The notes under the pieces are model-generated. The model made no database searches. It was not told where the DNA came from and was given only the letters and a program-made list of their open reading frames with translations. Shown piece after piece: positions 17,258 to 27,208 of a stretch of 64,000 nt of DNA. Positions within the stretch are counted from its first letter, which is position 1; each line of letters begins with the position of its first letter. Source of the stretch: Patescibacteria group bacterium (GTDB taxonomy: Bacteria; Patescibacteriota; Minisyncoccia; Phycocordibacterales; UBA918). The stretch lies in assembly GCA_019745315.1 (NCBI GenBank), contig JAIETH010000001.1:90526-154525 (forward strand). The letters are read 5' to 3'. Position numbers and translations under genes: made by a program.

Positions 17258-17330
17258 GGGCCCGTAGCTCATCTGGTAGAGCGCCTCACTTGCACTGAGG
17301 AGGCGGCAGGTTCGAGTCCTGTCGGGTCCA
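17258..17330 (+). tRNA. tRNA-Ala (anticodon TGC)
   Basis: Cloverleaf with acceptor GGGCCCG/CGGGTCC and a G3:U70 Ala identity pair. D-arm GCTCATCTGGTAGAGC. Anticodon loop CTTGCAC. T-arm GCAGG-TTCGAGT-CCTGT. Discriminator A. CCA not encoded. Confidence 0.9.
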
Positions 17331-17343
17331 CTGATATACAAAA

Positions 17344-17367
17344 CACCGGCTTTATGCCGGTTTTTGT
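17344..17367 (+). terminator. Rho-independent terminator after the tRNA (caccggc-tttat-gccgg + TTTTTGTG)
   Basis: GC-rich hairpin plus T-run 14 nt after the tRNA. Confidence 0.55.
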
Positions 17368-17407
17368 GTATCAGGTTGGGTGACCAGGGACTCGAAAAGG
17401 TTGCCAG

Positions 17408-19057
17408 CTATTTATTTTTAAAATAGCGACAACCTGTACTGAACATGTAATGTTCGAGTCCTGTCGGGTCCACATCGTCAGAGTTTTGTTCGCAAAACTC
17501 TTCAAATATCCTTGCAGTACTTAGTGAATCAGAGGTTCGAAAGGCCTCTGATTTGCTGTATGTCAGACGGCTATCAAAAAGGAAGAAAAAGAGCCTCTGT
17601 TGTTCTATTGGACTCACAGAATCCCAGATCGTTATTGGGCTTTTGAGCATCTTCGTTGCTTTATCAAAGGCGGTTCGAAATGGAACTTTTAGGTCCCCAT
17701 TTTGTCCTGGCTTCATATCTTTGAGTTCTTTCGCCAATTCTTCGATCCTTTTCTCATATTGTTCTCGCACAAGATCACTTCGAGTCCTCGATGCGCTGTC
17801 AGTCAATTCTCTAATTTCTTGTTCGATCCTTTCGCACTCCCTAGCATTTGCTGTTTGCTTGCTTCGTAAATCATGAACTTCTTCCTTCCACACACGACTG
17901 AAGGTAAGATCGAGGATCTCATCCATCTCTTGCTTGATCGCGTTGCGTTTTACCAAAGCGCGAAAATCTTCCTCAATCTTCTTTCTCTGAATAGCCTTTG
18001 ACCTCAATGAACATCCCTTGTGGATGCAGTAGTAATAGTAATAAGGATTCTTTTTGTGGTTGCTTGATCGAGCCGCAGTCAATTTGCTCTTACACTCTGA
18101 ACAAAGCACTAATCCACGCAAAGGGAATTCCGGAGAAATGTCCTGGCGAACCCATGCTTTAGAAGAATCCTTTTGTAAACGTCGTTGAATCTTTTCAAAT
18201 GTTTCTACAGAAATGATCCCTTTATGCTTTCCAGGTCGTCGGGCTACACCCCATTTTGGATATTCAATATCACCGCAGTAGGCGACATCCCTTAGGATAT
18301 TAGAAACATCCGTGAGATGTCCTTCCGCTGTTCTTCTCTCCCAGAATTTATTTTCAAAAAGGAATCGCGCAACATCAATCTGCCTGACAAATATTCCAGA
18401 AGCAAAACCCTCAAGGGCTTCCTTCAAGATCTTTGCATCCTGGTTAGGCACTAGAACTTTTCCATGCAGTGGGTTTTTCACCATATCGAATCCGCGCTTC
18501 TTTCCAAAAGTGTAATAGCCAAGATCGAGCCTGGCTTTCATTTTCTGAATAACTTGTCGCTGGTTTTGTTTACGCTCTAGTTGAGCCTGGCCGGACATAA
18601 TCAGTTCGGCGAATTCACCCTCCGGACTCTCATCAAAATTATAGTTTAGACAACGGAGCAAAACTTGGCGGTTTCTAAATGCCTGCCTTAGTTTGAAATG
18701 GAATTCAACATTTCTTGAAAAACGCTTCAGATCATCAAATACGACTATAAATTTCTTGTGGGGATTTGCATCAATATATCCAATAAGTTCTCTCATTGCA
18801 GGTCGCTTCATAAAATCACCTCCACCCGTGAAAGTGTCAGGGAATGTCTTGATGTAAGGTACTCCGATCAATCGGAGATCATTTACACAGCGTCCTTCTT
18901 GGCTTGTCAGACCGGAGCCTTCCAATTCCTGTTTCTTTGAAGAAACGCGAGCATAAACAAGACCTTCTCTGCCGAGAAAGGGATTTTTGTTTTCTAAATC
19001 TTGGATTATTTCTTTATGGAGTTTTTTTATACTCATATAATTCTTGCCGTATAACAT
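17408..19057 (-). CDS. Large serine recombinase (resolvase/invertase-type N-domain plus recombinase and zinc-ribbon C-domains)
   Basis: 'GLVYARVSSKKQ' catalytic-Ser motif. 'NPYYYYYCIHKGC' zinc-ribbon-like cysteines. About 549 aa, typical of LSR integrases. Confidence 0.85.
   Translation of the reverse strand: MLYGKNYMSIKKLHKEIIQDLENKNPFLGREGLVYARVSSKKQELEGSGLTSQEGRCVNDLRLIGVPYIKTFPDTFTGGGDFMKRPAMRELIGYIDANPHKKFIVVFDDLKRFSRNVEFHFKLRQAFRNRQVLLRCLNYNFDESPEGEFAELIMSGQAQLERKQNQRQVIQKMKARLDLGYYTFGKKRGFDMVKNPLHGKVLVPNQDAKILKEALEGFASGIFVRQIDVARFLFENKFWERRTAEGHLTDVSNILRDVAYCGDIEYPKWGVARRPGKHKGIISVETFEKIQRRLQKDSSKAWVRQDISPEFPLRGLVLCSECKSKLTAARSSNHKKNPYYYYYCIHKGCSLRSKAIQRKKIEEDFRALVKRNAIKQEMDEILDLTFSRVWKEEVHDLRSKQTANARECERIEQEIRELTDSASRTRSDLVREQYEKRIEELAKELKDMKPGQNGDLKVPFRTAFDKATKMLKSPITIWDSVSPIEQQRLFFFLFDSRLTYSKSEAFRTSDSLSTARIFEEFCEQNSDDVDPTGLEHYMFSTGCRYFKNK
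17452..17473. repeat. 22-nt exact direct copy of the tRNA-Ala 3' end (positions 17310-17331). Putative att/integration scar.
   Basis: 'gttcgagtcctgtcgggtccac' occurs twice. The second copy lies inside the last codons of the serine recombinase gene on the opposite strand. Confidence 0.8.
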
Positions 19058-19271
19058 TCCGGCACAATGACTCTATATATTCTAACCTTTTTAGAATGAC
19101 TTCATCCGGCGTTTTGTAGTCTTTCAAGGACTTCCGGTATTCAGCAATCGAGACTAGAGGTTTCTCTTGAGAAGCCTCGACTATTTCTGGATTTCCCTCG
19201 CCAACCCTATTCATGGCGGTAGGGATCCTCCATTTCAGAGGCTCGAATAGCGAGTGACACCAAGGATCCAA
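19014..19271 (-). CDS. Hypothetical small protein. Overlaps the recombinase start and the upstream ORF in another frame.
   Basis: 85-aa ORF translationally coupled to the recombinase. No family recognised. Confidence 0.35.
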   Translation of the reverse strand: MDPWCHSLFEPLKWRIPTAMNRVGEGNPEIVEASQEKPLVSIAEYRKSLKDYKTPDEVILKRLEYIESLCRNVIRQELYEYKKTP

Positions 19272-19539
19272 TACAGGTCGCTTGCTGGGGGGTCATAGGA
19301 TCCGTCCTGACCCTGTTTATCGTGTCCTCAAGAAGAACTAGCATCTCGGATGGACGCCTCACTGGAAGCCGTTTTAGTGGCTTTCCAGGCCTTCTAGTCT
19401 TAGGGGATGATCCTCCTTTCCGGACCGCAATTCCACGGGCTTCCGCTGTACTTGGATCATGGGTAAAGCAAAACTCCCGACCATGTAGCGCGTAGGCCTT
19501 GCATCGACTGTCTTCTTTTGTCTTGTGGATACAGCGCAT
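19207..19539 (-). CDS. Hypothetical small Cys/His-containing (Zn-finger-like) basic protein, possibly a recombination directionality factor or regulator
   Basis: 'CIHKTKEDSRCKAYALHGREFCFTH' C-x9-C...H-x4-C-x2-H pattern. Basic, Pro/Arg-rich middle. Preceded by a roughly 270-nt structured leader. Confidence 0.35.
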   Translation of the reverse strand: MRCIHKTKEDSRCKAYALHGREFCFTHDPSTAEARGIAVRKGGSSPKTRRPGKPLKRLPVRRPSEMLVLLEDTINRVRTDPMTPQQATCIGSLVSLAIRASEMEDPYRHE

Positions 19540-19843
19540 GAGTTTTGCTTACTCTCGGCGCTACCCACCCACAAAAAATTCGCGAAGATTCGGGTTCGTT
19601 TTTCCTCACTAGAAACGGAAAAGGGACCTGAACCCCCGCGACCGTAGTCGTGGATGAGTTCAGATCCCTTAGGATTCCGAAGCCGAATCAGTCGATTCGC
19701 TTTATCGAGTTTACCTTTGGACCGTGTTTCTCCCGTGGGAAAAGCAAAGCCAAAGACTCAATAGCACTATCAACCTATGCTTATATTCTAACTCGTTGAG
19801 AAAACCTGTCAAAGGTTATTCAACTTGTCAGGCTCCATGAAAA

Positions 19844-20110
19844 CTAAAGGATGCTAATTTTGTCTGCCGCTTCTTCTGTCGATTTTTTGTCGGCAGTAAT
19901 CTTTGACTTCAACTTCACCAACTCCTTTTTGAGCAATTGCTTTGCTCTTTCTTTTTCCTCGGCCGAAGAAAAATGTTTGTTCTCAAACTCTTCGATCTTT
20001 CGGTCCATTTCCTTGAGTTTCTTTTTGTTGGCCACCATAAATATTGGAGCCATAAAACCTGCTAAGAACAGACCGATGAAGATCGCTACTACAAGAATGA
20101 TGATTATCAT
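19844..20110 (-). CDS. Small membrane protein with coiled-coil tail (88 aa)
   Basis: 'MIIIILVVAIFIGLFLAGFMAPIFMVA' TM followed by a K/E-rich helix. Confidence 0.45.
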   Translation of the reverse strand: MIIIILVVAIFIGLFLAGFMAPIFMVANKKKLKEMDRKIEEFENKHFSSAEEKERAKQLLKKELVKLKSKITADKKSTEEAADKISIL

Positions 20111-20356
20111 AAATTTGCTTGATCGACTTCTCTAATAATGCCCGCTAGGTTTTCCGTTTACACACAGAAAACCCGCCACGGGTAGGAGCCGAAGCCCCTC
20201 GTACAGGTTTCCCCATACGGCGATCAAGCAACCCCATGACGGGTTTTCTATGCTTGATCGACTTTTGACCATACCTTTGACCGGAGTCAAAGGGTTAGGC
20301 CCAACATATTCAGTTGTAAATACATTATACGATATTTTTGATTCCACTTACAGACT
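20111..20356. repeat. Structured non-coding region. Contains the 14-nt direct repeat 'tgcttgatcgactt' (20116-20129 and 20251-20264), an inverted 10-nt copy (20221-20230), and additional perfect hairpins (e.g. 20274-20293).
   Basis: Repeats and palindromes read directly from the sequence. No convincing ORF. Confidence 0.5.
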
Positions 20357-20404
20357 ATGCGAACAAGTCTAGAAATGGTGGTGTTTTTGTACTATAATGA
20401 ACTC

Positions 20405-21400
20405 ATGGCAAAGGCTACTAAAAAGAAAGCCGCACTAAGCCCTATTGAGGCCCTTGAAGCCTCAAGAAATAGCAGGGTGATTGTTTATTTTACAGGGGAC
20501 AGAAAACCTCAACCGTTTTCAACATTGGTTGGTATTGATGTACTCCCTGCATTCAAGGCTGTTCTCAAAAAAATTGGTAATACAAAAAAGATCACACTTG
20601 CCCTCTACACTAATGGGGGACATTTGGATACTCCTTGGCCTCTAATACATTTGATCAGGGAACACGCTGAAGAATTCGAGGTGCTTATTCTTGAGAAAGC
20701 ATTGAGCGCTGGAACTATGATTGCCCTAGGAGGCGATAAGATTGTCATGACGCCTCATTCTTTTTTGAGTCCTATTGATCCTGCAACCAATTTCCAAGAC
20801 GAGGAAAATCAGAAAATGAAGCGTTTTGAAATTGAGGATGTGATTGGGTATATAGATTTTGTTAGAGACAGAATCGGGATCACTGAACAACAGGCTTTGA
20901 TGGAAATCATGAAAGATTTGACTAAGGAAGTAAATCCTACTCGTCTTGGGTCTATTCATCGTACCCATGCTTTGGTTAGACGATTAGCAACAAAACTACT
21001 ATCGCTCCACAAAGAACCAGTGTCCGAAAGACAGACAAAGGAGATTATTGATCATTTGGCTCAAAAACTTTTTTCTCATAGTCATTTGATAAACAGGAAG
21101 GAAGCAAAAGAGATTGGTTTCGATAACATCATTGAATATGCCGATAAAGCAACTGAAAAGGCGGCTGATAATTTGATGACATACTATTCAGACTATCTCA
21201 AAATCGATGAGGAGTTTGAGCCTCTAAAGGAGATTGGCGAAAAAGAAGTAAAGAAAGAAATTCCACTAAGTCTAGCCGTAGTTCACTCCAAAGATCTCAA
21301 GTATGACTTCAAGGCAAATTGCGTAATTACAAAAGCCCCAGATCCAAACGGAAATCCTGGGATCAGAGTCGATATGAAATCTAAGTGGGAAAAAATATGA
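20405..21400 (+). CDS. ClpP/SppA/SDH-superfamily serine peptidase (crotonase-fold protease)
   Basis: 'LSAGTMIALGGDKIVMTPHSFLSPIDP' matches the ClpP-like G-x-S-x-G ... P motif pattern. About 330 aa with a non-protease C-terminal extension. Confidence 0.6.
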   Translation: MAKATKKKAALSPIEALEASRNSRVIVYFTGDRKPQPFSTLVGIDVLPAFKAVLKKIGNTKKITLALYTNGGHLDTPWPLIHLIREHAEEFEVLILEKALSAGTMIALGGDKIVMTPHSFLSPIDPATNFQDEENQKMKRFEIEDVIGYIDFVRDRIGITEQQALMEIMKDLTKEVNPTRLGSIHRTHALVRRLATKLLSLHKEPVSERQTKEIIDHLAQKLFSHSHLINRKEAKEIGFDNIIEYADKATEKAADNLMTYYSDYLKIDEEFEPLKEIGEKEVKKEIPLSLAVVHSKDLKYDFKANCVITKAPDPNGNPGIRVDMKSKWEKI

Positions 21401-21639
21401 AATACAACTCTCAAACAATATCAATAGGCAGTGATAGACAGAATTTCAAGACAAGCCTTGAAATAGCGGGTAATTTGAATGTTGGAGGAATTGTATATTC
21501 TACGCGACAAAATGGGTGGTTCATACAAACACAAGGTCCTGAAATAAAAAAGAACGAGCCATCAGGAGAATATGTAGAACTAAGTAAGGAAGAAGAAAAG
21601 AAGTTCTACAAGAAAGCCTTGGAGAAGAAACTTCTGTAA
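21397..21639 (+). CDS. Hypothetical small protein
   Basis: ORF overlapping the protease stop by 4 nt (operonic). K/E-rich C-terminus. Confidence 0.35.
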   Translation: MKYNSQTISIGSDRQNFKTSLEIAGNLNVGGIVYSTRQNGWFIQTQGPEIKKNEPSGEYVELSKEEEKKFYKKALEKKLL

Positions 21640-21642
21640 ATT

Positions 21643-22146
21643 ATGTATGCGGAACAAGGCCTACTCGATCCAACAACGCTTTACCAGGGAGATCTCATAG
21701 AAGATTTTCCTTTTCATGACCTTGATTCCCATTCTTCTGTAGTTAGAAACGAGAGTGGTACCCTAGTTGAACAAGCCACAGAGGATCAAAACTATCTTGC
21801 TCTCATTGAAACAAAGAAAAGGACAGTGATGATACTATCTCAAACTTGCGATATACAAAGGCGTACCCATGTCATTGTTTGTCCTATTTTCGATCTTCAA
21901 GAATACAGTAGAACTATCTCAAGGGATAAAGTTGAGGCTCTAAAAAAGAGAACAATAAACTATCTTTTTTATCTTCCCGCACATGGTAATTTTCAGGAAT
22001 CGTTTGCTGATTTACAACAGATTCACTATGTACCTCTAGAAACCATGAACTCCTACAAAGACAAGAGGGTTTTATCTTTGAGTGATTTGGGGAGACATCA
22101 TCTTTCTTGGTCCTTAGCATCTTTGTTTGGTCGGCCAGCATCGTAA
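21643..22146 (+). CDS. Hypothetical protein (167 aa)
   Basis: Begins 4 nt after the previous ORF. No recognisable motifs. Confidence 0.45.
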   Translation: MYAEQGLLDPTTLYQGDLIEDFPFHDLDSHSSVVRNESGTLVEQATEDQNYLALIETKKRTVMILSQTCDIQRRTHVIVCPIFDLQEYSRTISRDKVEALKKRTINYLFYLPAHGNFQESFADLQQIHYVPLETMNSYKDKRVLSLSDLGRHHLSWSLASLFGRPAS

Positions 22147-22522
22147 GTCTAGTTCTATATCCCTATTGTGGTAGTTGGATTGAAAGATCTCTAAGAAAAT
22201 TCAAGCGCTCTTTGAAGCGTAGGGCTTGATTGGTAGTACTCCCAAAAGCGAGATAGGTAGGTTTTCAGGTGGTTCGAAGTTTTATATACTGTGTCCACAA
22301 AATACGAAATAATCTCCCAAACGGGAGATTTTTCGATTTTGTGGAAAGCGCAGCCATATCGCTTTTGCGATGGCGAGCTGGGGTCGAGAGCACTTAGGCT
22401 TTTGTGAATACTTGGAACAAAAGACTTAGTGACTCGTGACCACTGGTGGAAGCCAAGGTGCGCTCGCGGAAATTTTGCCTAAAGCAAAATTATCTGTAAC
22501 CACAAAAAAGAGCGTTTTGTAT

Positions 22523-22867
22523 TCACGCTCTTCGTCTTCCGGCTTCTTCTCGTTCGAGTATCTCCTCATATTCTGCAGTGACGGTCTCCACATCATCTGG
22601 TTGTATAACCAGTGCTGCAATTAGGTCTCGTGCACGCATCTGGAGAAAGAAAATGGTGGGCAGTGATTTGCCGATCGCATACCTGACCACTGCCTCATGA
22701 ATTTTTCCAGCTACCACATACGCACTCATGTAGTATCCTGCGATAGAAAAGAACTCAGGAAAAAGGTCTTCCGGCAATCTATCCAGATCGGCACTCCCGA
22801 GAGAGATGCATTCAAGCTTATCTTTCATCTCACGGAAAGGGTGCAGTCGAATCAATCGTGATGCCAT
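22523..22867 (-). CDS. Hypothetical protein, GC-rich cassette
   Basis: Start set at the internal Met 'MASRLIRLHPF...', chosen on composition alone (the stretch upstream of it in the ORF is AT-rich); no RBS was checked. GC-rich third positions. Hairpin+T terminator downstream on the - strand. Confidence 0.4.
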   Translation of the reverse strand: MASRLIRLHPFREMKDKLECISLGSADLDRLPEDLFPEFFSIAGYYMSAYVVAGKIHEAVVRYAIGKSLPTIFFLQMRARDLIAALVIQPDDVETVTAEYEEILEREEAGRRRA

Positions 22868-23029
22868 GACTTTTCTCCCATCTGAGAGGATGAAAAGAAC
22901 TATATACAGAAAACATATACAAGGGAGCCTTGTCAACGAACACTATGAGTATATTGATTATCTTAAAATAATATGGTATAAGTTTTTTATATTGTATAGT
23001 GCAATACGTACATTTAAGGAGAATTTGGA

Positions 23030-23464
23030 ATGGCTCAAGGAGAAAAAATACTCCTTCTGGACGGAGAGAAGTCGAGGCGTGAAGGAATTGCTAAGCTTCT
23101 CACGGAATGGGGTCATAGGGTTGCTGCGGAGCGGTGTCCTGATACGGCGTGGCGATTGATTGAGCAGTACCCGAACTCCTTCACTGTTGTCATCGCTCCC
23201 GCCAACACGTCGCGTGGTAGCGGCACTGACTTCCTGGCTCGTGTTTCGTCTGGGATGAATACGCCGCCCCACCTGATCGCTCTGTGTGTCGCCCTCCATC
23301 ACTATCGGCGATATCTGCCGGATGTGATTGCGGACTTTGGGGGACACTGCGTTTCTGCGACCTGGCTTTGTGATGACGGAACGAACTACCCGCATCTCCG
23401 GGGTGTGATCGAAAACCTGAAGATACGACCCATTCTCTCGGTGACCGATACCAAAGACCACTAG
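23030..23464 (+). CDS. Receiver (REC)-like domain protein, degenerate (pseudo-receiver?)
   Basis: 'KILLLDGEKSRREGIAKLL...' has CheY-like N-terminal topology, but the acidic pocket and phospho-Asp are not conserved. GC-rich. Confidence 0.45.
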   Translation: MAQGEKILLLDGEKSRREGIAKLLTEWGHRVAAERCPDTAWRLIEQYPNSFTVVIAPANTSRGSGTDFLARVSSGMNTPPHLIALCVALHHYRRYLPDVIADFGGHCVSATWLCDDGTNYPHLRGVIENLKIRPILSVTDTKDH

Positions 23465-23488
23465 GTCTTCTGTATCGGTCTTTTTTAT
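23443..23488 (+). terminator. Hairpin (gaccgatac...gtatcggtc) plus T6 terminator of cassette 1. The 'TTTTTTATTTCC' motif is shared by the following cassettes.
   Basis: Seen directly. Analogous hairpin+T-run elements follow each of the seven cassettes. Confidence 0.6.
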
Positions 23489-23507
23489 TTCCAATTTCAG
23501 AAGGCAC

Positions 23508-23536
23508 TGTACAAAAACATATTACATGGTATAATT
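23508..23536 (+). promoter_or_regulatory. Sigma-70-type promoter for cassette 2: -35 'tgtaca', 17-nt spacer, extended -10 'TGGTATAAT'
   Basis: Read from the sequence. The same 'tatggtataa' element recurs upstream of cassettes 1, 4 and 5 and other genes. Confidence 0.45.
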
Positions 23537-23583
23537 CCTGCCGGATTTGCACCCGCAAGTCTCTCAGTATTCGGAGAGCCATA

Positions 23584-23967
23584 ATGGCACAAGCAAGGAT
23601 TCTCTTGGTTGAAGATGAACGGTTTTTGCGGAGCATGTACACTATGCTCCTCGAAGGGGCAGGTTATGAGGTTTTCTCTGCCGTAAACGGCGAGGAGGCA
23701 GAGGAAAAGCTGGAGCTCGGATCTTTCGATTTGATCTTGAGCGACAACAATATGCCGTTCAAGGATGGCGTGGATGTGCTTCGGGCTCTTCGCGCGGCAG
23801 GGAATGCCATCCCATTCATCCTTATGAGCGGGCGTCCTTGGCTTGATGACGGTACTGGCCTCGAGGATTTGTGCGCGTCCCACGGGGCGCAGTTCATCCA
23901 GAAGCCTGCTCAGAACAAGGTCCTTCTCGCCGCCATCGAGGAGATGCTCGCAGCCAAATCGGCATAG
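23584..23967 (+). CDS. Single-domain response-regulator receiver (CheY-like)
   Basis: 'RILLVEDE', phospho-acceptor context 'FDLILSDNNMP', and conserved 'T/S' and 'KP' ('FIQKP') positions. Confidence 0.85.
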   Translation: MAQARILLVEDERFLRSMYTMLLEGAGYEVFSAVNGEEAEEKLELGSFDLILSDNNMPFKDGVDVLRALRAAGNAIPFILMSGRPWLDDGTGLEDLCASHGAQFIQKPAQNKVLLAAIEEMLAAKSA

Positions 23968-24124
23968 GTTTCAAGATTGAGGAGTACCCGGGTGGACATG
24001 TGTCCATCCGGTTTTTTATTTCCATTCTCAAATACTTGCAATAGCTCAAATTATATGTTCCAATGCGTTTAGAGTCACACACAAAATCGTGTGAGTGGCA
24101 AAACCAAAACTGGAGGCTCATACA

Positions 24125-24508
24125 ATGAAGCGAATCTTGATTGTTGAAAGTGACGAAGCTCTTGCGGCAGAGCTGACAGAGATGCTGAAGGAGCATCTCG
24201 TGGTGACGGTGCCGAGCACTGTCACTGCATGGGTGTTGATCGAGGAAGGGCCGCCGTTTGATCTTGTGATCACGGATGTCGACAAGATCTCCGAGATGAG
24301 CGGGGTCCAGCTTCTCACGAACATGAAGGCGCAGTCTGTACCGAGCGCATGCGTGCTCATGAGCAGCGGCACCCACCACGACGGACAGTTCCTGCCTGAT
24401 ATTGCCCACAGGCTCGGCATCGAATTCATGCTCAAGTCGAGTATCCGCATTCGGTTTGTTCTTCCTCTCGTGGAGCGCCTTCTTGGTGTCACACGCGCCG
24501 CGGCATAA
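24125..24508 (+). CDS. Single-domain receiver (REC)-like protein
   Basis: 'RILIVESDE', 'FDLVITDVD'. Start taken at the internal Met. Confidence 0.6.
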   Translation: MKRILIVESDEALAAELTEMLKEHLVVTVPSTVTAWVLIEEGPPFDLVITDVDKISEMSGVQLLTNMKAQSVPSACVLMSSGTHHDGQFLPDIAHRLGIEFMLKSSIRIRFVLPLVERLLGVTRAAA

Positions 24509-24566
24509 GCCGCACCAATCCCTCTCCGCTTGCGAGTGGGATTTTTTCATACCCGGATACAAAATA

Positions 24567-24596
24567 TTGCAATTATTGTATTTCTATGGTATAAAA
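24567..24596 (+). promoter_or_regulatory. Promoter for cassette 4: -35 'ttgcaa', 18-nt spacer, 'TGGTATAAA'
   Basis: Read from the sequence. Confidence 0.4.
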
Positions 24597-24644
24597 CAGG
24601 TGGAAATTTCGCAGCTGTGCGGAATTCAGTGAGGGGGAAGTAGC

Positions 24645-25034
24645 GTGGCAAAAACCATTTTGGTCGTTGATGATGATGACGGCGTCCGCGAAGAGCTCGC
24701 GGAACTGATCGAGCTTCCGGGGCGGATCATCGTGATCGCCAAAAATCCGGAAGAGGCCCTCCGGCTCATCGATGGGGGTCTCAAGCCCCACTTGATCATC
24801 TCCGATCTCAACATGCCGCCGTATATGGACGGCTTCACCATGTTCATGGTGATTCGCCGCCTCAAGCGGTTTCCGTTTAACTTCATTCTGATGAGTGCGA
24901 GAGATAATCTGGACGGGGTGTCGCTCGCGGAGCTTTCGCGCAGGTACTCGTTCGAGTTCATCAGCAAGGGCTCTCTCCGAGGATCAGAGATCCTTCCGAT
25001 GGTCGCGCGCCTCCTCGAGAGTCTCGAGGTCTGA
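24645..25034 (+). CDS. Single-domain response-regulator receiver (CheY-like)
   Basis: 'ILVVDDDD', 'HLIISDLNMP', 'FISKG'. Confidence 0.85.
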   Translation: MAKTILVVDDDDGVREELAELIELPGRIIVIAKNPEEALRLIDGGLKPHLIISDLNMPPYMDGFTMFMVIRRLKRFPFNFILMSARDNLDGVSLAELSRRYSFEFISKGSLRGSEILPMVARLLESLEV

Positions 25035-25100
25035 GGGCCTCTCGCGCAGGTGTTTAAAAACACACCTGCGCTTTTTTATTTTCATACAAAACCATAGAGC

Positions 25101-25131
25101 TTGATAGTGCCATATTTTTATGGTATAAAAT
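25101..25131 (+). promoter_or_regulatory. Promoter for cassette 5: -35 'ttgata', 17-nt spacer, 'TGGTATAAAAT'
   Basis: Read from the sequence. Confidence 0.45.
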
Positions 25132-25179
25132 ACTTCAGAAATTTCGCCCCACGGCGACATCCGCAGGAGGTCAACCAAA

Positions 25180-25635
25180 ATGGCTCGTGTGCTCTGCGTA
25201 GATCCAGAAAACGAAGAATTGATAGTGCAGGTGATCCGAGGGATCGCTGATCACGGTCACACCGTGCATATGGTCCCGAGCCTTTTTCAAGTGCCCATCA
25301 CCGTGAGTCAATTCTACTTCGATCTCATGGTCGTGGTTGATGACCCTCTCGATTTCGATTTCGAGCGGCTCAAGGTTTTTCACGCAGCTCGATGCCGCGT
25401 GATTCCTCCTGACAATCTTCCACTGCCGCATCTTCTCGTCGTGTGTCCGGTGAGCATTCCTCCTCCTCGAGTGTGGAAGCTCAACTCACTCCGCATGCAA
25501 GTGCGGGAACCAACAAGTTACGTGGTGCTGGGGAAGAGCGATCAAAAACCCTGTCCGCTCTACGAGCACTTGAAGCCGCTCTTTCCGTCTGTTCTCCCAG
25601 AGCACACGCTCTGGACAGAACCTGTCCAAGCCTGA
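25180..25635 (+). CDS. Receiver-like domain protein, degenerate
   Basis: 'RVLCVDPENEE', 'FDLMVVVDD'. Pro-rich C-terminus. GC-rich. Confidence 0.4.
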   Translation: MARVLCVDPENEELIVQVIRGIADHGHTVHMVPSLFQVPITVSQFYFDLMVVVDDPLDFDFERLKVFHAARCRVIPPDNLPLPHLLVVCPVSIPPPRVWKLNSLRMQVREPTSYVVLGKSDQKPCPLYEHLKPLFPSVLPEHTLWTEPVQA

Positions 25636-25743
25636 CTCTCATCCGCATCTGCGGATTTTTTCTTTATTGCACATACAAATTATTTATGCGATCTTTTTAG
25701 AGGATAGTGCACATCCCGTGCTCACAATCAAAACGAGGGTGTT

Positions 25744-26211
25744 ATGGAAAAAAAGTTCGCACCGAAAGTGTTGATCGTCCATACCAGCGTTTGTGCTCGC
25801 ATATGCATTCGCGTGCCGCTTATGAGAAAGCATCGCGTGCGCGGTGTCAGCTGCGGAGAAACGGCTCTTTCTGTTTTTCGGATGGGTTTTTTTGATCCGG
25901 ATCTGGTCATCATAAACTACGCTCTCTCGAAAGATATGTCGGGCATGAAGCTTCTCGGCGCTCTTCGTGAGAAGACCTCCATGCGCGCAGTTCCTTTTTT
26001 TTCAGGTCCGGTGGTGGTGCTGGGAGCGTCCGAGACCGCAGAGCGTACGAGGAAATTGGAGACGCTCTGCGCACGGCGAGATGCGGTCTATATGTCCAGT
26101 TTCAGCTGCTGGCCGGAAGATCTGGCGAGGCTCGCACGAATCGTTAATGGTCAGCTTGATCCGTATGGATCAGAAGAAGAGGGCGAACGCTCATTATCGA
26201 CGAAAGTCTGA
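25744..26211 (+). CDS. Receiver-like domain protein, degenerate (Asp to Asn at the acceptor position)
   Basis: 'KVLIVHTS', 'DLVIINYAL', 'VVVLGAS'. Confidence 0.4.
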   Translation: MEKKFAPKVLIVHTSVCARICIRVPLMRKHRVRGVSCGETALSVFRMGFFDPDLVIINYALSKDMSGMKLLGALREKTSMRAVPFFSGPVVVLGASETAERTRKLETLCARRDAVYMSSFSCWPEDLARLARIVNGQLDPYGSEEEGERSLSTKV

Positions 26212-26336
26212 AGAGTACCCGAGACATGTTCTCGGTTTTTTTATTTCCCACCATACTCTTGATCCGTATCTTTTTTCATGTCACTATCTTTGCTCGGGGC
26301 GCGCAGTGCGTCCCTTGTTCTTTCCGGGGAAGATTC

Positions 26337-26768
26337 ATGCAACATGTATTGTGTGTGGGAGATGGTCAACATATCGACGCGATGCTGAGGAGCGGCGTCG
26401 AACGCATCGAAGGCCAGACCATCAAGGTGACATCAGTGCAGACGACAGAGGATGCGCTCCTCCATCTGCGTGCCGCCAACGACGAGCCGTGCCTTGTCGT
26501 GATCGCTCTGCCATTTCGCACATGCATGAATTTCATGCGCAGCCTGCGGCAGCCTGATGGAAACAAGCAGCAGCTCTTCGAAGGGCCCTTCGTTTTCGTC
26601 GGGCAGTCGAATGGCTTCATTCGCTCGAGGATGCTGTACAAGTTCGTCGCACTGCTTCACGGCATCTGCTACGACACGGAGTGGACGAAGGTCACTCCCG
26701 TACTCTTCGAGCGGCTCGTCAGGACGCTGCTTGATCCCTACGGCATGCTGTATCAGGAAGCAGCATAG
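26337..26768 (+). CDS. Receiver-like domain protein, degenerate
   Basis: Internal Met 'MQHVLCVGDGQ', 'CLVVIALP', 'FVFVGQS'. Followed by a 'cacacgccccgcgtgtgg'+T6 terminator. Confidence 0.4.
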   Translation: MQHVLCVGDGQHIDAMLRSGVERIEGQTIKVTSVQTTEDALLHLRAANDEPCLVVIALPFRTCMNFMRSLRQPDGNKQQLFEGPFVFVGQSNGFIRSRMLYKFVALLHGICYDTEWTKVTPVLFERLVRTLLDPYGMLYQEAA

Positions 26769-27208
26769 CCTCCCAACAACCCCACACGCCCCGCGTGTGG
26801 TTTTTTATGCTATGTGTTGCGGTTTCAGCATTTTGCTTATAATAAAATTATACAGGATGCAGGGAATAGGAAATCGCCGAACTCTCCTTAGAGTCCGGCG
26901 ATGGCGACAGGAGTGTGTACTCCTAGTCCGCAAGTTGCTTCACTGCGATGAGGTCGAGTGTCTCTCTCAGCATTTGGCCGCTCATGTCCGAAACCTCTCG
27001 GACATAGTCTGCCTGTGCGTTCGTATGAGAGTACTGCTCCCATGCGAACATACCCAGCATTGCAGCAAGAAAGAACATCGCGTATTCGTACTTCACTGTG
27101 ATTCCCCCTCAGGAATGTGTTTTAATATTATACTATTATATTAAATAAAGTCAATAGTCTGTGTAAACGCGTAAATGGCGCGCTTTTGTATTGTATAATC
27201 ATAGCAAT

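Follow-up and report, generated by a model that had tools for sequence, protein, structure and literature searches.

An intact tRNA-Ala(UGC) gene in a 64-kb stretch of Patescibacteria DNA (the window, meaning the whole stretch that was analysed) is followed by a second, exact copy of its last 22 nt, and this copy lies inside the 3' end of a gene for a large serine integrase (int) on the opposite strand. The initial annotation of the window took the pair for the scar of an integration into the tRNA gene, while noting that serine recombinases normally make no long direct repeats. What, then, made the repeat, and where does the element of the recombinase end? Our analysis indicates that the integrase belongs to a 4,825-bp element, E1, which probably sits at the tRNA-like end of a 142-bp unit lying between it and the tRNA. 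E1 belongs to a family of elements whose integrases, on the same reading, recombine at the last bases of tRNA-Ala and transfer-messenger RNA (tmRNA) genes and split their own gene by doing so. The coordinates of all features are collected in Table 1.

The repeat itself is confirmed by ARAGORN and by exact search. ARAGORN calls a single tRNA gene in the window, which the Rfam tRNA model matches at 17258-17330 with 65.6 bits. The 22-mer GTTCGAGTCCTGTCGGGTCCAC, which begins in the tRNA at G53 of the T-stem and ends one base past the discriminator, occurs exactly twice (17310-17331 and 17452-17473) and has no match in 100 dinucleotide-preserving shuffles. Further copies had been proposed as a marker of the distal boundary, but none exists in the 64 kb even with up to 3 mismatches allowed. 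On the int strand, copy 2 encodes V-D-P-T-G-L-E and the first base of a His codon. It had been placed in the last codons of the recombinase, and it does lie inside the open reading frame (ORF) near its end, but that His and 13 more codons still precede the stop.

An integrase gene split between the two ends of E1

The minus-strand ORF at 17408-19057 (549 aa, ending in NSDDVDPTGLEHYMFSTGCRYFKNK and a stop codon) matches Pfam PF00239 Resolvase (E=1.1e-16), PF07508 Recombinase (2.3e-8), and PF13408 Zn_ribbon_recom (1.9e-7), as well as a PHROG integrase (1.7e-55). Its best NCBIfam matches are generic and far below cut-off (XisF, 92.8 bits; CcrB/CcrC, about 60 bits). The 542-aa product is 100% identical to P0001, an NCBI entry from "Patescibacteria group bacterium"; neither the 549-aa nor the 542-aa form had an exact match in the contig index. 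A protein search yielded 1,330 homologues at E<=1e-10 among the candidates scored, nearly all from Patescibacteria, and the same is true of the best 120, which are 48-87% identical and full length. The sequence YARVSS is invariant in two family alignments; R30, V31, and S32 (P0001 numbering) belong to it, the catalytic serine included. A literature search found no paper on this Patescibacteria integrase family, and the family of elements is apparently both large and undescribed.

The best 120 homologues share a conserved C-terminal stretch, ...F-E-E-F-x3-N-S-x-D-V-[DE]. After NSxDV[DE], at least 95 of the 120 continue with the translated antisense of a tRNA or tmRNA (e.g., VDPTGIEPVTSSLQMRRSTK or VEMGGIEPPCK), and 5-7 carry a conserved tail that is not derived from tRNA. 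This native tail, present in the minority homologues P0045, P0047, P0064, and P0104, has the consensus V-D-x5-[TL]-[SL]-N-x-L-K-x-Y-L-S-R-F-W-x-Y-Y-Q-S-S-P-x-L-Q-x-A-L. The body of the window integrase ends in ...NSDDVD and is followed by a substitute tail, PTGLEHYMFSTGCRYFKNK and a stop codon, read from the 142-bp unit. With the P0045 tail as the query, tblastn located the native tail elsewhere in the window, at 22298-22203 on the minus strand (E=2.4e-13).

This match defines the far end of E1. Repeats of at least 11 nt had been sought around 40 homologous integrases and were mostly absent; the tail search then located the right attachment site, attR. E1 spans 17474-22298, 4,825 bp core to core, and its two ends share only GTCCAC, as expected if serine recombinases make no long direct repeats. 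The 22-mer pair is thus not the scar of the recombinase's element, whose true distal end is the 6-bp core at 22293-22298 together with the detached int tail. We found no displaced tDNA fragment at the far end of E1. An unrecombined element, with the element's own site (attP) still beside the host site (attB), was ruled out by the native tail lying 4.8 kb away.

Because the detached ORF beside the second core is the C-terminal tail of int itself, attP lies inside the int ORF and integration, as read from these sequences, splits the gene. The earlier suggestion that the 3' end of the integrase overlaps the attachment site thus holds for the family. At locus L083, the tail is a separate 48-codon ORF that starts from GTGGAC 5.5 kb upstream of int, on the opposite side of a small insertion that separates prfA from rpsB. 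At about 31 other loci, a detached tail ORF beginning with V[DE] lies upstream of int at a distance of 3.3-11 kb. Across the 34 tails that were aligned, mean column identity is 66%, and L15, F18, W19, and Y22 are invariant. That a piece detached in the chromosome is still conserved argues for selection on the gene in its joined form.

This form is found on a circle. Two samples (L207 and L208) yielded one 5,387-bp circle, with ends that overlap by 30 nt and 0 mismatches between the samples once rotated. The circle carries int fused to the native tail, an AbiEii gene, and a LOOT RNA. The AlphaFold2 model of the circle-encoded P0047 (mean predicted local distance difference test score, 82) predicts catalytic, recombinase, zinc-ribbon, and coiled-coil parts, with long helices at 366-414 and 418-438 after the zinc ribbon. 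A low-confidence linker (519-525) falls exactly at the junction in this model, and tail helices are predicted at 522-553.

Empty-site configurations exist in relatives, both in L130 compared with L185 and in natural flanks in which the tRNA gene is followed directly by AAAATAC..., and the insertion reading of E1 stands for that reason. The flank after E1 aligns with natural tRNA-Ala downstream flanks and resembles them (L152, L172, L192, and L194); in L152 and L172, for example, the tRNA end is followed by AAAATACAAAAAGG...TTTTGATTTTGTGGAAG. The circular form and the occupied and empty sites of related strains suggest indirectly that the family integrases may catalyse recombination between attP and attB. 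No recombination directionality factor was identified for the family elements.

A true tandem array is present at L011 (9956-16007), where a different serine integrase of 513 aa overlaps tRNA-Ala(CGC). The family-1 int behind this neighbour runs into a "type-2" tail, CGSIFWNSFALECNRLVEIL..., apparently the detached tail of the neighbour. Type-2 tails also occur in P0014, in L024, and in the mini-elements of L185.

Target genes and crossover site

At 49 of 80 genome loci, a gene called by ARAGORN on the opposite strand overlaps the 3' end of int. The overlapping gene is a tmRNA at 23 loci, a tRNA-Ala at 24 (UGC at 11, GGC at 11, and CGC at 2), and a tRNA-Ile and a tRNA-Leu at 1 locus each. Several of the remaining 31 loci have tmRNA-like tails missed by ARAGORN, as Rfam confirmed for L032. 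In every case, the last six bases called for the overlapped gene read, on the antisense strand, as the V-[DE] codons of int (GTGGAC or GTGGAG). The acceptor end of tmRNA is of the alanine type, and therefore the family, judged by these overlaps, targets one motif, ...[G/C]TCCAC. The target at L083 (11570-11650, minus strand) is a tRNA-Ala-like gene with an alanine-type acceptor stem and T-arm in which an 8-bp stem with a 9-nt loop replaces the anticodon arm, and both ARAGORN and Rfam miss this gene.

We compared 32 pairs of left and right attachment sites (attL and attR), which share only GTGGA plus zero to a few bases. The extension past the core is 0-3 bases in most pairs, with L032 (17 nt) and L023 (10 nt) as the exceptions. 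In the tmRNA loci, base 6 is G in the host-derived attL and C in the tail-derived attR, and because of this difference the exchange must, on these alignments, take place within GTGGA, which corresponds to T70-C74 of the target. Counted from the first core base, the T-loop-derived motif T[CT]GAA[CT] is at +16 in 30 of the 32 target (B) arms and at +21 in 21 of the 32 tail-coding (P) arms. This 5-bp outward shift in attP relative to attB agrees with the shift of the zinc-ribbon-domain (ZD) motif in the published model of large serine recombinases (LSRs) (PMC3783163). We infer CC(71-72) as the central dinucleotide, which is an estimate; given that centre, base pair 24 of the P arm and base pair 19 of the B arm mark the end of the motif. 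A perfectly symmetric arrangement of P and P' could not be placed with single-base precision, and the two half-sites of the 32 reconstructed attB sites are not recognisable as imperfect inverted repeats.

The inverted repeat in the P' arm of E1 has equivalents at 31 loci, 8-27 nt before the core, in the form GAGTTTG-N6-CAAACTC. The stem pairs at 7/7 positions in 14 of 32 loci, and compensatory variants occur (GAGTTTT/AAAACTC, GAGTTGG/CCAACTC, GATTTTG/CAAAATC, and GAATTTG/CAAATTC). This repeat may form a hairpin or serve as a putative palindromic binding site.

The 142-bp unit and the origin of the 22-nt repeat

In the usual layout of the family, int abuts a complete tRNA gene, whereas the window int borders on only 22 nt of tRNA-like sequence, and 120 bp separate these from the real tRNA. 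These 22 nt close the 142-bp unit, which has the order terminator, inverted copy, hairpin, AACCTGTACTG, and direct copy. The fragment begins with the core and stops where the TCGAAC motif ends on its outer side, which makes copy 2 exactly a B-type half-site. It is the attB arm within the present-day attL of E1, and its motif position agrees with the B arms of the family. Copy 2 is the tRNA-like end of the unit that follows the tRNA, and for this reason the serine recombinase is not the maker of the long direct repeat.

A metagenome scan with the 22-mer found 74 distinct full tRNA-Ala loci, about 55 of them with at least 300 nt of downstream sequence. In 11 of these ~55 loci, the tRNA end recurs as a direct copy of 12-22 nt at a distance of 120-220 nt downstream, and the sequence examined beyond that copy showed no recombinase gene. 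Duplication without a recombinase, which the initial annotation had named as evidence for a structural feature and against an attachment-site scar, is thus in part what we observe. The units share a common plan: a terminator, GTGGACCCGA-(hairpin)-ACAGGAC[TG][CA]GAAAAGG, a variable interior with hairpins, and ...GAGTCCTGTCGGGTCCAC. tmRNA genes are also followed by this plan, and there the inverted copy matches the tmRNA. An nhmmer profile built from the units of L098, L164, L130, and L119 matches the window at 17388-17473 (E=1.9e-9, 32 bits); the true tRNA end alone scores 10.4 bits against it. The 120-bp spacer had no BLAST match in a set of 86 loci or in a later set of about 206, and the homology is seen only by the unit profile.

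Comparisons between related loci locate insertions relative to the unit. L130 and L185 are 92-97% identical in aligned segments, and L185 contains two int-less mini-elements, of 649 bp (1040-1687) and about 985 bp (1855-2838), that are both missing from L130. One is inserted at the tRNA end and the other near the 3' end of a unit; both end in the conserved right-end sequence and GTCCAC, and the first bears a recognisable tail ORF. L098 and L129 have the tRNA in common and flanks that are 98.9% identical, and only one of the two has a unit in between. Given these two comparisons, unit ends look like secondary insertion sites, one of which E1 occupies in the window. The unit may have been present before E1 or may have slipped in after it, as both orders yield the same map. 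As cargo, one L185 mini-element has a 140-aa ORF resembling the C-terminal domain of RNA polymerase alpha, and the other has a 189-aa secreted protein.

The explanation we consider probable is that E1 is a serine-integrase element at the end of a unit. The boundaries of E1, the division of int, the target specificity, the circular form, and the homology of the unit are seen in the sequences; the exclusive activity of the full-length enzyme, the central dinucleotide, and the order of events go beyond them. The target would be the last bases of tRNA-Ala and tmRNA genes, ...TCCAC at positions 70-74, and the crossover would fall in the V-D/E codons (GTGGAC or GTGGAG) within the int ORF. Integration would detach the last ~35 codons, which encode the conserved helical tail, to the far end of the element (22191-22298), and the integrated int would gain a replacement tail read from the antisense of its target. 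In the window, 17452-17473 would be the target half-site (B arm plus core) fused to int, provided by the tRNA-like end of the unit and not by the tRNA itself. The full-length, circle-encoded integrase would drive integration, and it may be the only fully active form. The re-tailed chromosomal integrase may be impaired or differently regulated, which would stabilise the insertion, by analogy with the speculation of McMurdie et al. about dsiB and with the archaeal "suicidal" integrases.

Several observations weigh against this explanation. The window locus is atypical for the family because its int tail is unique among the 120 homologues, with 5 tRNA-derived residues followed by unrelated sequence. 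The B' host flank is almost unconserved across the 32 reconstructed attB sites, which is unusual for an LSR attB. The tandem array of L011 implies hybrid-site recombination, which is foreign to canonical LSRs, and the second L185 junction is complicated rather than simple. The unit may itself be a scar or a mini-element. Finally, E1 is known from assembled sequence alone, and its activity is putative.

Among the alternatives, it is possible, if on the whole unlikely, that the unit is a small structured RNA gene or a DNA palindrome that accompanies tRNA-Ala and tmRNA and has a look-alike end that the integrase merely exploits. The 5' end of the unit would then be complementary to its 3' end, the 3' end would copy the 3' end of the neighbour, and the repeat would be a functional part of that RNA. 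The same layout after tmRNA (GTGGAGATGG-hairpin-GGGGAATCGAA; the L028 unit ends in CCTTCTCCAC), predicted folds with a long terminal helix and conserved hairpin positions, and the terminators flanking the units are all in its favour. However, an Rfam search with the unit matched no family, the interiors of the units show little conservation, related loci (L098 and L129) differ in whether they have a unit, and only about one fifth of tRNA-Ala loci do. Signal recognition particle RNA, RNase P RNA, Y RNA, ribozymes, and group I introns were dropped as identities of the unit when none matched. The published paper on tRNA introns in Patescibacteria deals with anticodon-loop introns only.

The initial annotation had also proposed tandem accretion of elements at this tRNA. 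More than one inserted entity is indeed present here, and relatives contain arrays (L011), but the 22-mers bound the 142-bp unit. In its strict form, this proposal holds that the 22-mers are attL and attR of a second element that entered tRNA-Ala in the block from the T-loop to the 3' end and then decayed to 120 bp, either a tyrosine-integrase island or a DsiB-like LSR with an identity block of ~20 bp. We judge this doubtful, although it is compatible with our preferred explanation. The identity block, G53-C74, is a canonical T-loop-type block, and at ssrA in Dehalococcoides, 20-bp repeats and islands without int are left behind (PMC3146451). In the metagenome scan, tRNA-Ala was a hot spot with many island-type 3' fragments, some of the 43-nt anticodon-loop type (L093, L127, L132, L139, L170, and L184) and others of 22-24 nt, such as a 24-nt block adjoining methyltransferase cargo (L096). 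A true tandem array is seen in L011. Yet the 120 bp are homologous, by the profile match given above, to units in unrelated genomes that have the inverted copy and hairpins in common and carry no integrase. Moreover, a Pfam and PHROG scan of the window ORFs between 9996 and 30478 found no tyrosine recombinase or second integrase and no Phage_integrase match.

A bolder proposal, to which we give a low probability, is that the units are non-autonomous mini-elements or landing pads that multiply the target and are mobilised in trans, within a complete, RNA-assisted integration system that is specific for tRNA ends and peculiar to Patescibacteria. Each unit would start with an inverted copy and end with a direct copy of the 3' end of its neighbour, and would co-evolve with the self-splitting integrases. 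Directionality would come from the detachable tail, with no need for a separate factor, while replication or recombination of the element would involve the obligatory LOOT RNA.

That the tRNA 3' end was duplicated locally in tandem along with its flank and later diverged, with no mobile DNA involved, is very improbable. L091 and L107 do bear a second, near-complete tRNA-Ala copy with internal insertions 124-220 nt downstream (a 23-nt hairpin in the D-arm region in L091 and an insertion of ~90 nt in the T-arm in L107). In the window, however, 17332-17451 cannot be aligned with the sequence from 22299 onward beyond the terminator architecture, yet the 22-mers are identical, and the inverted copy inside the unit is left unexplained. 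An assembly artefact that mixes integrated and excised forms is scarcely credible, even though the source is a metagenome-assembled genome and the contigs of the sister element (L001 and L002) break exactly at the tRNA, as the 22-nt repeat is shorter than assembler k-mers, the spacer junctions would need real reads, and the same architecture appears in independent assemblies.

Contents of E1 and relation to known systems

E1 is a compact element in which int is accompanied by a LOOT RNA, a predicted serine protease, and small ORFs; phrog_11747 and phrog_4575 are the PHROG matches among its cargo. The LOOT RNA scores 78.6 bits against a gathering score of 46.4 and covers model positions 1-121 of 121 (RF03000). 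Of the 19 family elements checked, 13 have a LOOT RNA, which can be on either strand and mostly lies 1-3 kb upstream of int; a literature search on its genomic context found no paper. PHROGs and Pfam recognised no capsid, replication, or conjugation genes in E1 and the family elements scanned. A scan of IMG/VR for close relatives of the integrase returned only distant recombinases, 25% identical, which leaves a prophage reading unsupported. Cargo varies among L207/L208, L209, and L083, where we observed the AbiEii toxin, a HerA/DUF87-ResIII ATPase, FtsK-gamma, and MerR-type helix-turn-helix proteins.

To the left of the tRNA lie housekeeping genes (uvrA-like, uvrC, UDP-glucose dehydrogenase, ddl, and pterin-4a-carbinolamine dehydratase). 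To the right of E1, past the host terminator, 22341-22445 contains a conserved RNA-like block, GTGGAA..GCGAGCTGGGGTCGAGAG-(hairpin)-ACTTAGTGACTCGTGACCA, which matches no Rfam family. The block is also found 3' of tRNA-Ala or tmRNA in L039, L048, L152, L172, L192, and L194, sometimes as a tandem pair. Farther on, 22500-27150 has a G+C content of 50-52% against a background of 44% and contains a minus-strand ORF run (22523-25431) and plus-strand ORFs (25744-26768) with almost no Pfam or PHROG matches. Neither homologues of these ORFs in the fetched loci nor an attachment-site remnant was found, and the region may be an older island beside the same tRNA.

Table 1. Features of the tRNA-Ala locus and E1 in the window, and LOOT RNAs in related elements
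Feature	Position	Strand	Remarks
tRNA-Ala(UGC), intact host gene	17258-17331	+	ARAGORN; last 22 nt (17310-17331) are repeat copy 1
142-bp unit	17332-17473	+	Ends in repeat copy 2
Unit terminator hairpin	17345-17361		Terminator scan
Degenerate inverted copy of tRNA 3' end, GTGACCAGGGACTCGAAAAGG	17380-17400		
Unit hairpin	about 17400-17433		Overlaps int stop codon
Large serine integrase, integrated form	17408-19036	-	542 aa from M8, probable start; ORF can start at 19057
Repeat copy 2	17452-17473	+	B-type half-site (T-loop motif TCGAAC to acceptor 3' strand) plus core
attL core GTCCAC	17468-17473		V-D codons GTGGAC on int strand; crossover placed inside TCCAC
7-bp inverted repeat GAGTTTT-N6-AAAACTC	17481-17500		int 3' coding region (P' arm)
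Small ORF, 110 aa	19207-19539	-	Together with the 88-aa ORF, 91-97% identity range in sister element L001/L002
Small ORF, 88 aa	19844-20110	-	See 110-aa ORF
LOOT RNA	20184-20301	-	Rfam RF03000
SDH-type ClpP-like serine protease	20357-21400	+	Pfam PF01972, 4e-13; NCBIfam Clp_like_SDH, 1e-16, below cut-off
Cargo ORF, 84 aa	21385-21639	+	
Cargo ORF, 167 aa	21643-22146	+	
Detached native int C-terminal tail, VDTVYKTSNHLKTYLSRFWEYYQSSPTLQRALEFS and stop	22191-22298	-	35 codons; P arm of attP
attR core GTCCAC	22293-22298		
Original host flank (B' side), AAAATACGAAAT...	22299-22340	+	Bidirectional terminator at 22311-22330
LOOT RNA in related elements	L083 8670-8789; L001 3531-3651; L207 1011-1133; L209 407-525		
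LOOT RNA in further elements			L003, L005, L006, L013, L017, L028, L032 (two copies), L033

The closest described system is that of the ssrA-specific genomic islands of Dehalococcoides and their serine integrase DsiB (McMurdie et al. 2011, PMC3146451), a likeness drawn from the published description. DsiB is likewise an LSR of ~540 aa that adjoins attL; its ORF always continues into the tmRNA gene or its repeat, so that the neighbouring sequence determines the stop codon. Both systems also insert at the 3' ends of tRNA-like genes and include tandem arrays as well as islands that lack int. Overlap of the integrase ORF with attL at the tmRNA 3' end is a DsiB trait; in the present family a tmRNA overlaps int at 23 of 80 loci and a tRNA-Ala at 24 of 80, and the window int overlaps a tRNA-Ala-like end. 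McMurdie et al. speculated that the dsiB gene is complete only on the circle or beside a neighbouring island (PMC3146451); here, unlike in that description, the detached tail is identified and conserved. The DsiB islands have a 20-bp repeat and an insertion point in the T-loop, in contrast to a 5-6-bp core at positions 70-74 here, and the distal boundary of E1 shares only GTCCAC instead of a repeat of ~20 bp. They are tens of kb long and carry a six-gene module (the small serine recombinase DsiA, RecF-like, ParB, Mom, and others), of which we found no domain in E1, L083, L207, L209, or L210. The Patescibacteria elements, by contrast, measure 3-11 kb, have no second recombinase, carry the LOOT RNA, and also target tRNA-Ala.

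The phage-type large serine integrases A118/LI, phiC31, and Bxb1 (Rutherford et al. 2013, PMC3783163) resemble the present family in their Resolvase, Recombinase, zinc-ribbon, and coiled-coil parts, in the short common core, and in the 5-bp attP motif shift. They differ in that the present family has tRNA-Ala and tmRNA targets, an attP inside the int ORF, and an unconserved B' arm. Self-disruption has been described for the SSV-type "suicidal" tyrosine integrases, self-disrupting recombinases said to be exclusive to archaea, whose gene partition is proposed to bias the reaction toward stable integration (PMC8371274). The common points are an attP inside the integrase gene and an integration that fragments or re-tails it; the differences are that SSV-type enzymes are archaeal tyrosine recombinases, whereas here a bacterial serine recombinase loses only its last ~35-45 codons. 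In Myxococcus, the Mx8 integrase IntP/IntX is a tyrosine recombinase with attP within its gene. Tyrosine islands of the Islander/TIGER type also insert into the 3' part of a tDNA, keep the gene intact, and have tRNA-Ala and tmRNA as hot spots with fragments of several kinds. Unlike them, E1 has no tyrosine recombinase, and the 22-mers bracket only 120 bp without a gene; Islander-type islands are bracketed by the tDNA and its displaced fragment, whereas the 22-nt repeat belongs to the unit and not to E1.

In 2014, Islander reported that tRNA-gene targets were not known for serine integrases, and Mageeney et al. 2020 listed 14 of 297 serine-integrase cases at such targets and called for proof. 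Against that earlier description, a very large family uses tRNA genes. A 5-bp core, an int gene in two parts, a motif shifted by 5 bp, and a free circle make its anatomy clear. When a long repeat of a tRNA end lies close to a serine integrase, it is not necessarily an attachment site of that integrase. The orphan LOOT RNA gains a host phylum and a home on mobile elements, and the family provides a bacterial serine counterpart of the "suicidal" integrases that had been described as exclusive to archaea. Compact and directed at a universally conserved target, the alanine-type acceptor end, these integrases are candidate tools or markers of gene flow in unculturable organisms.

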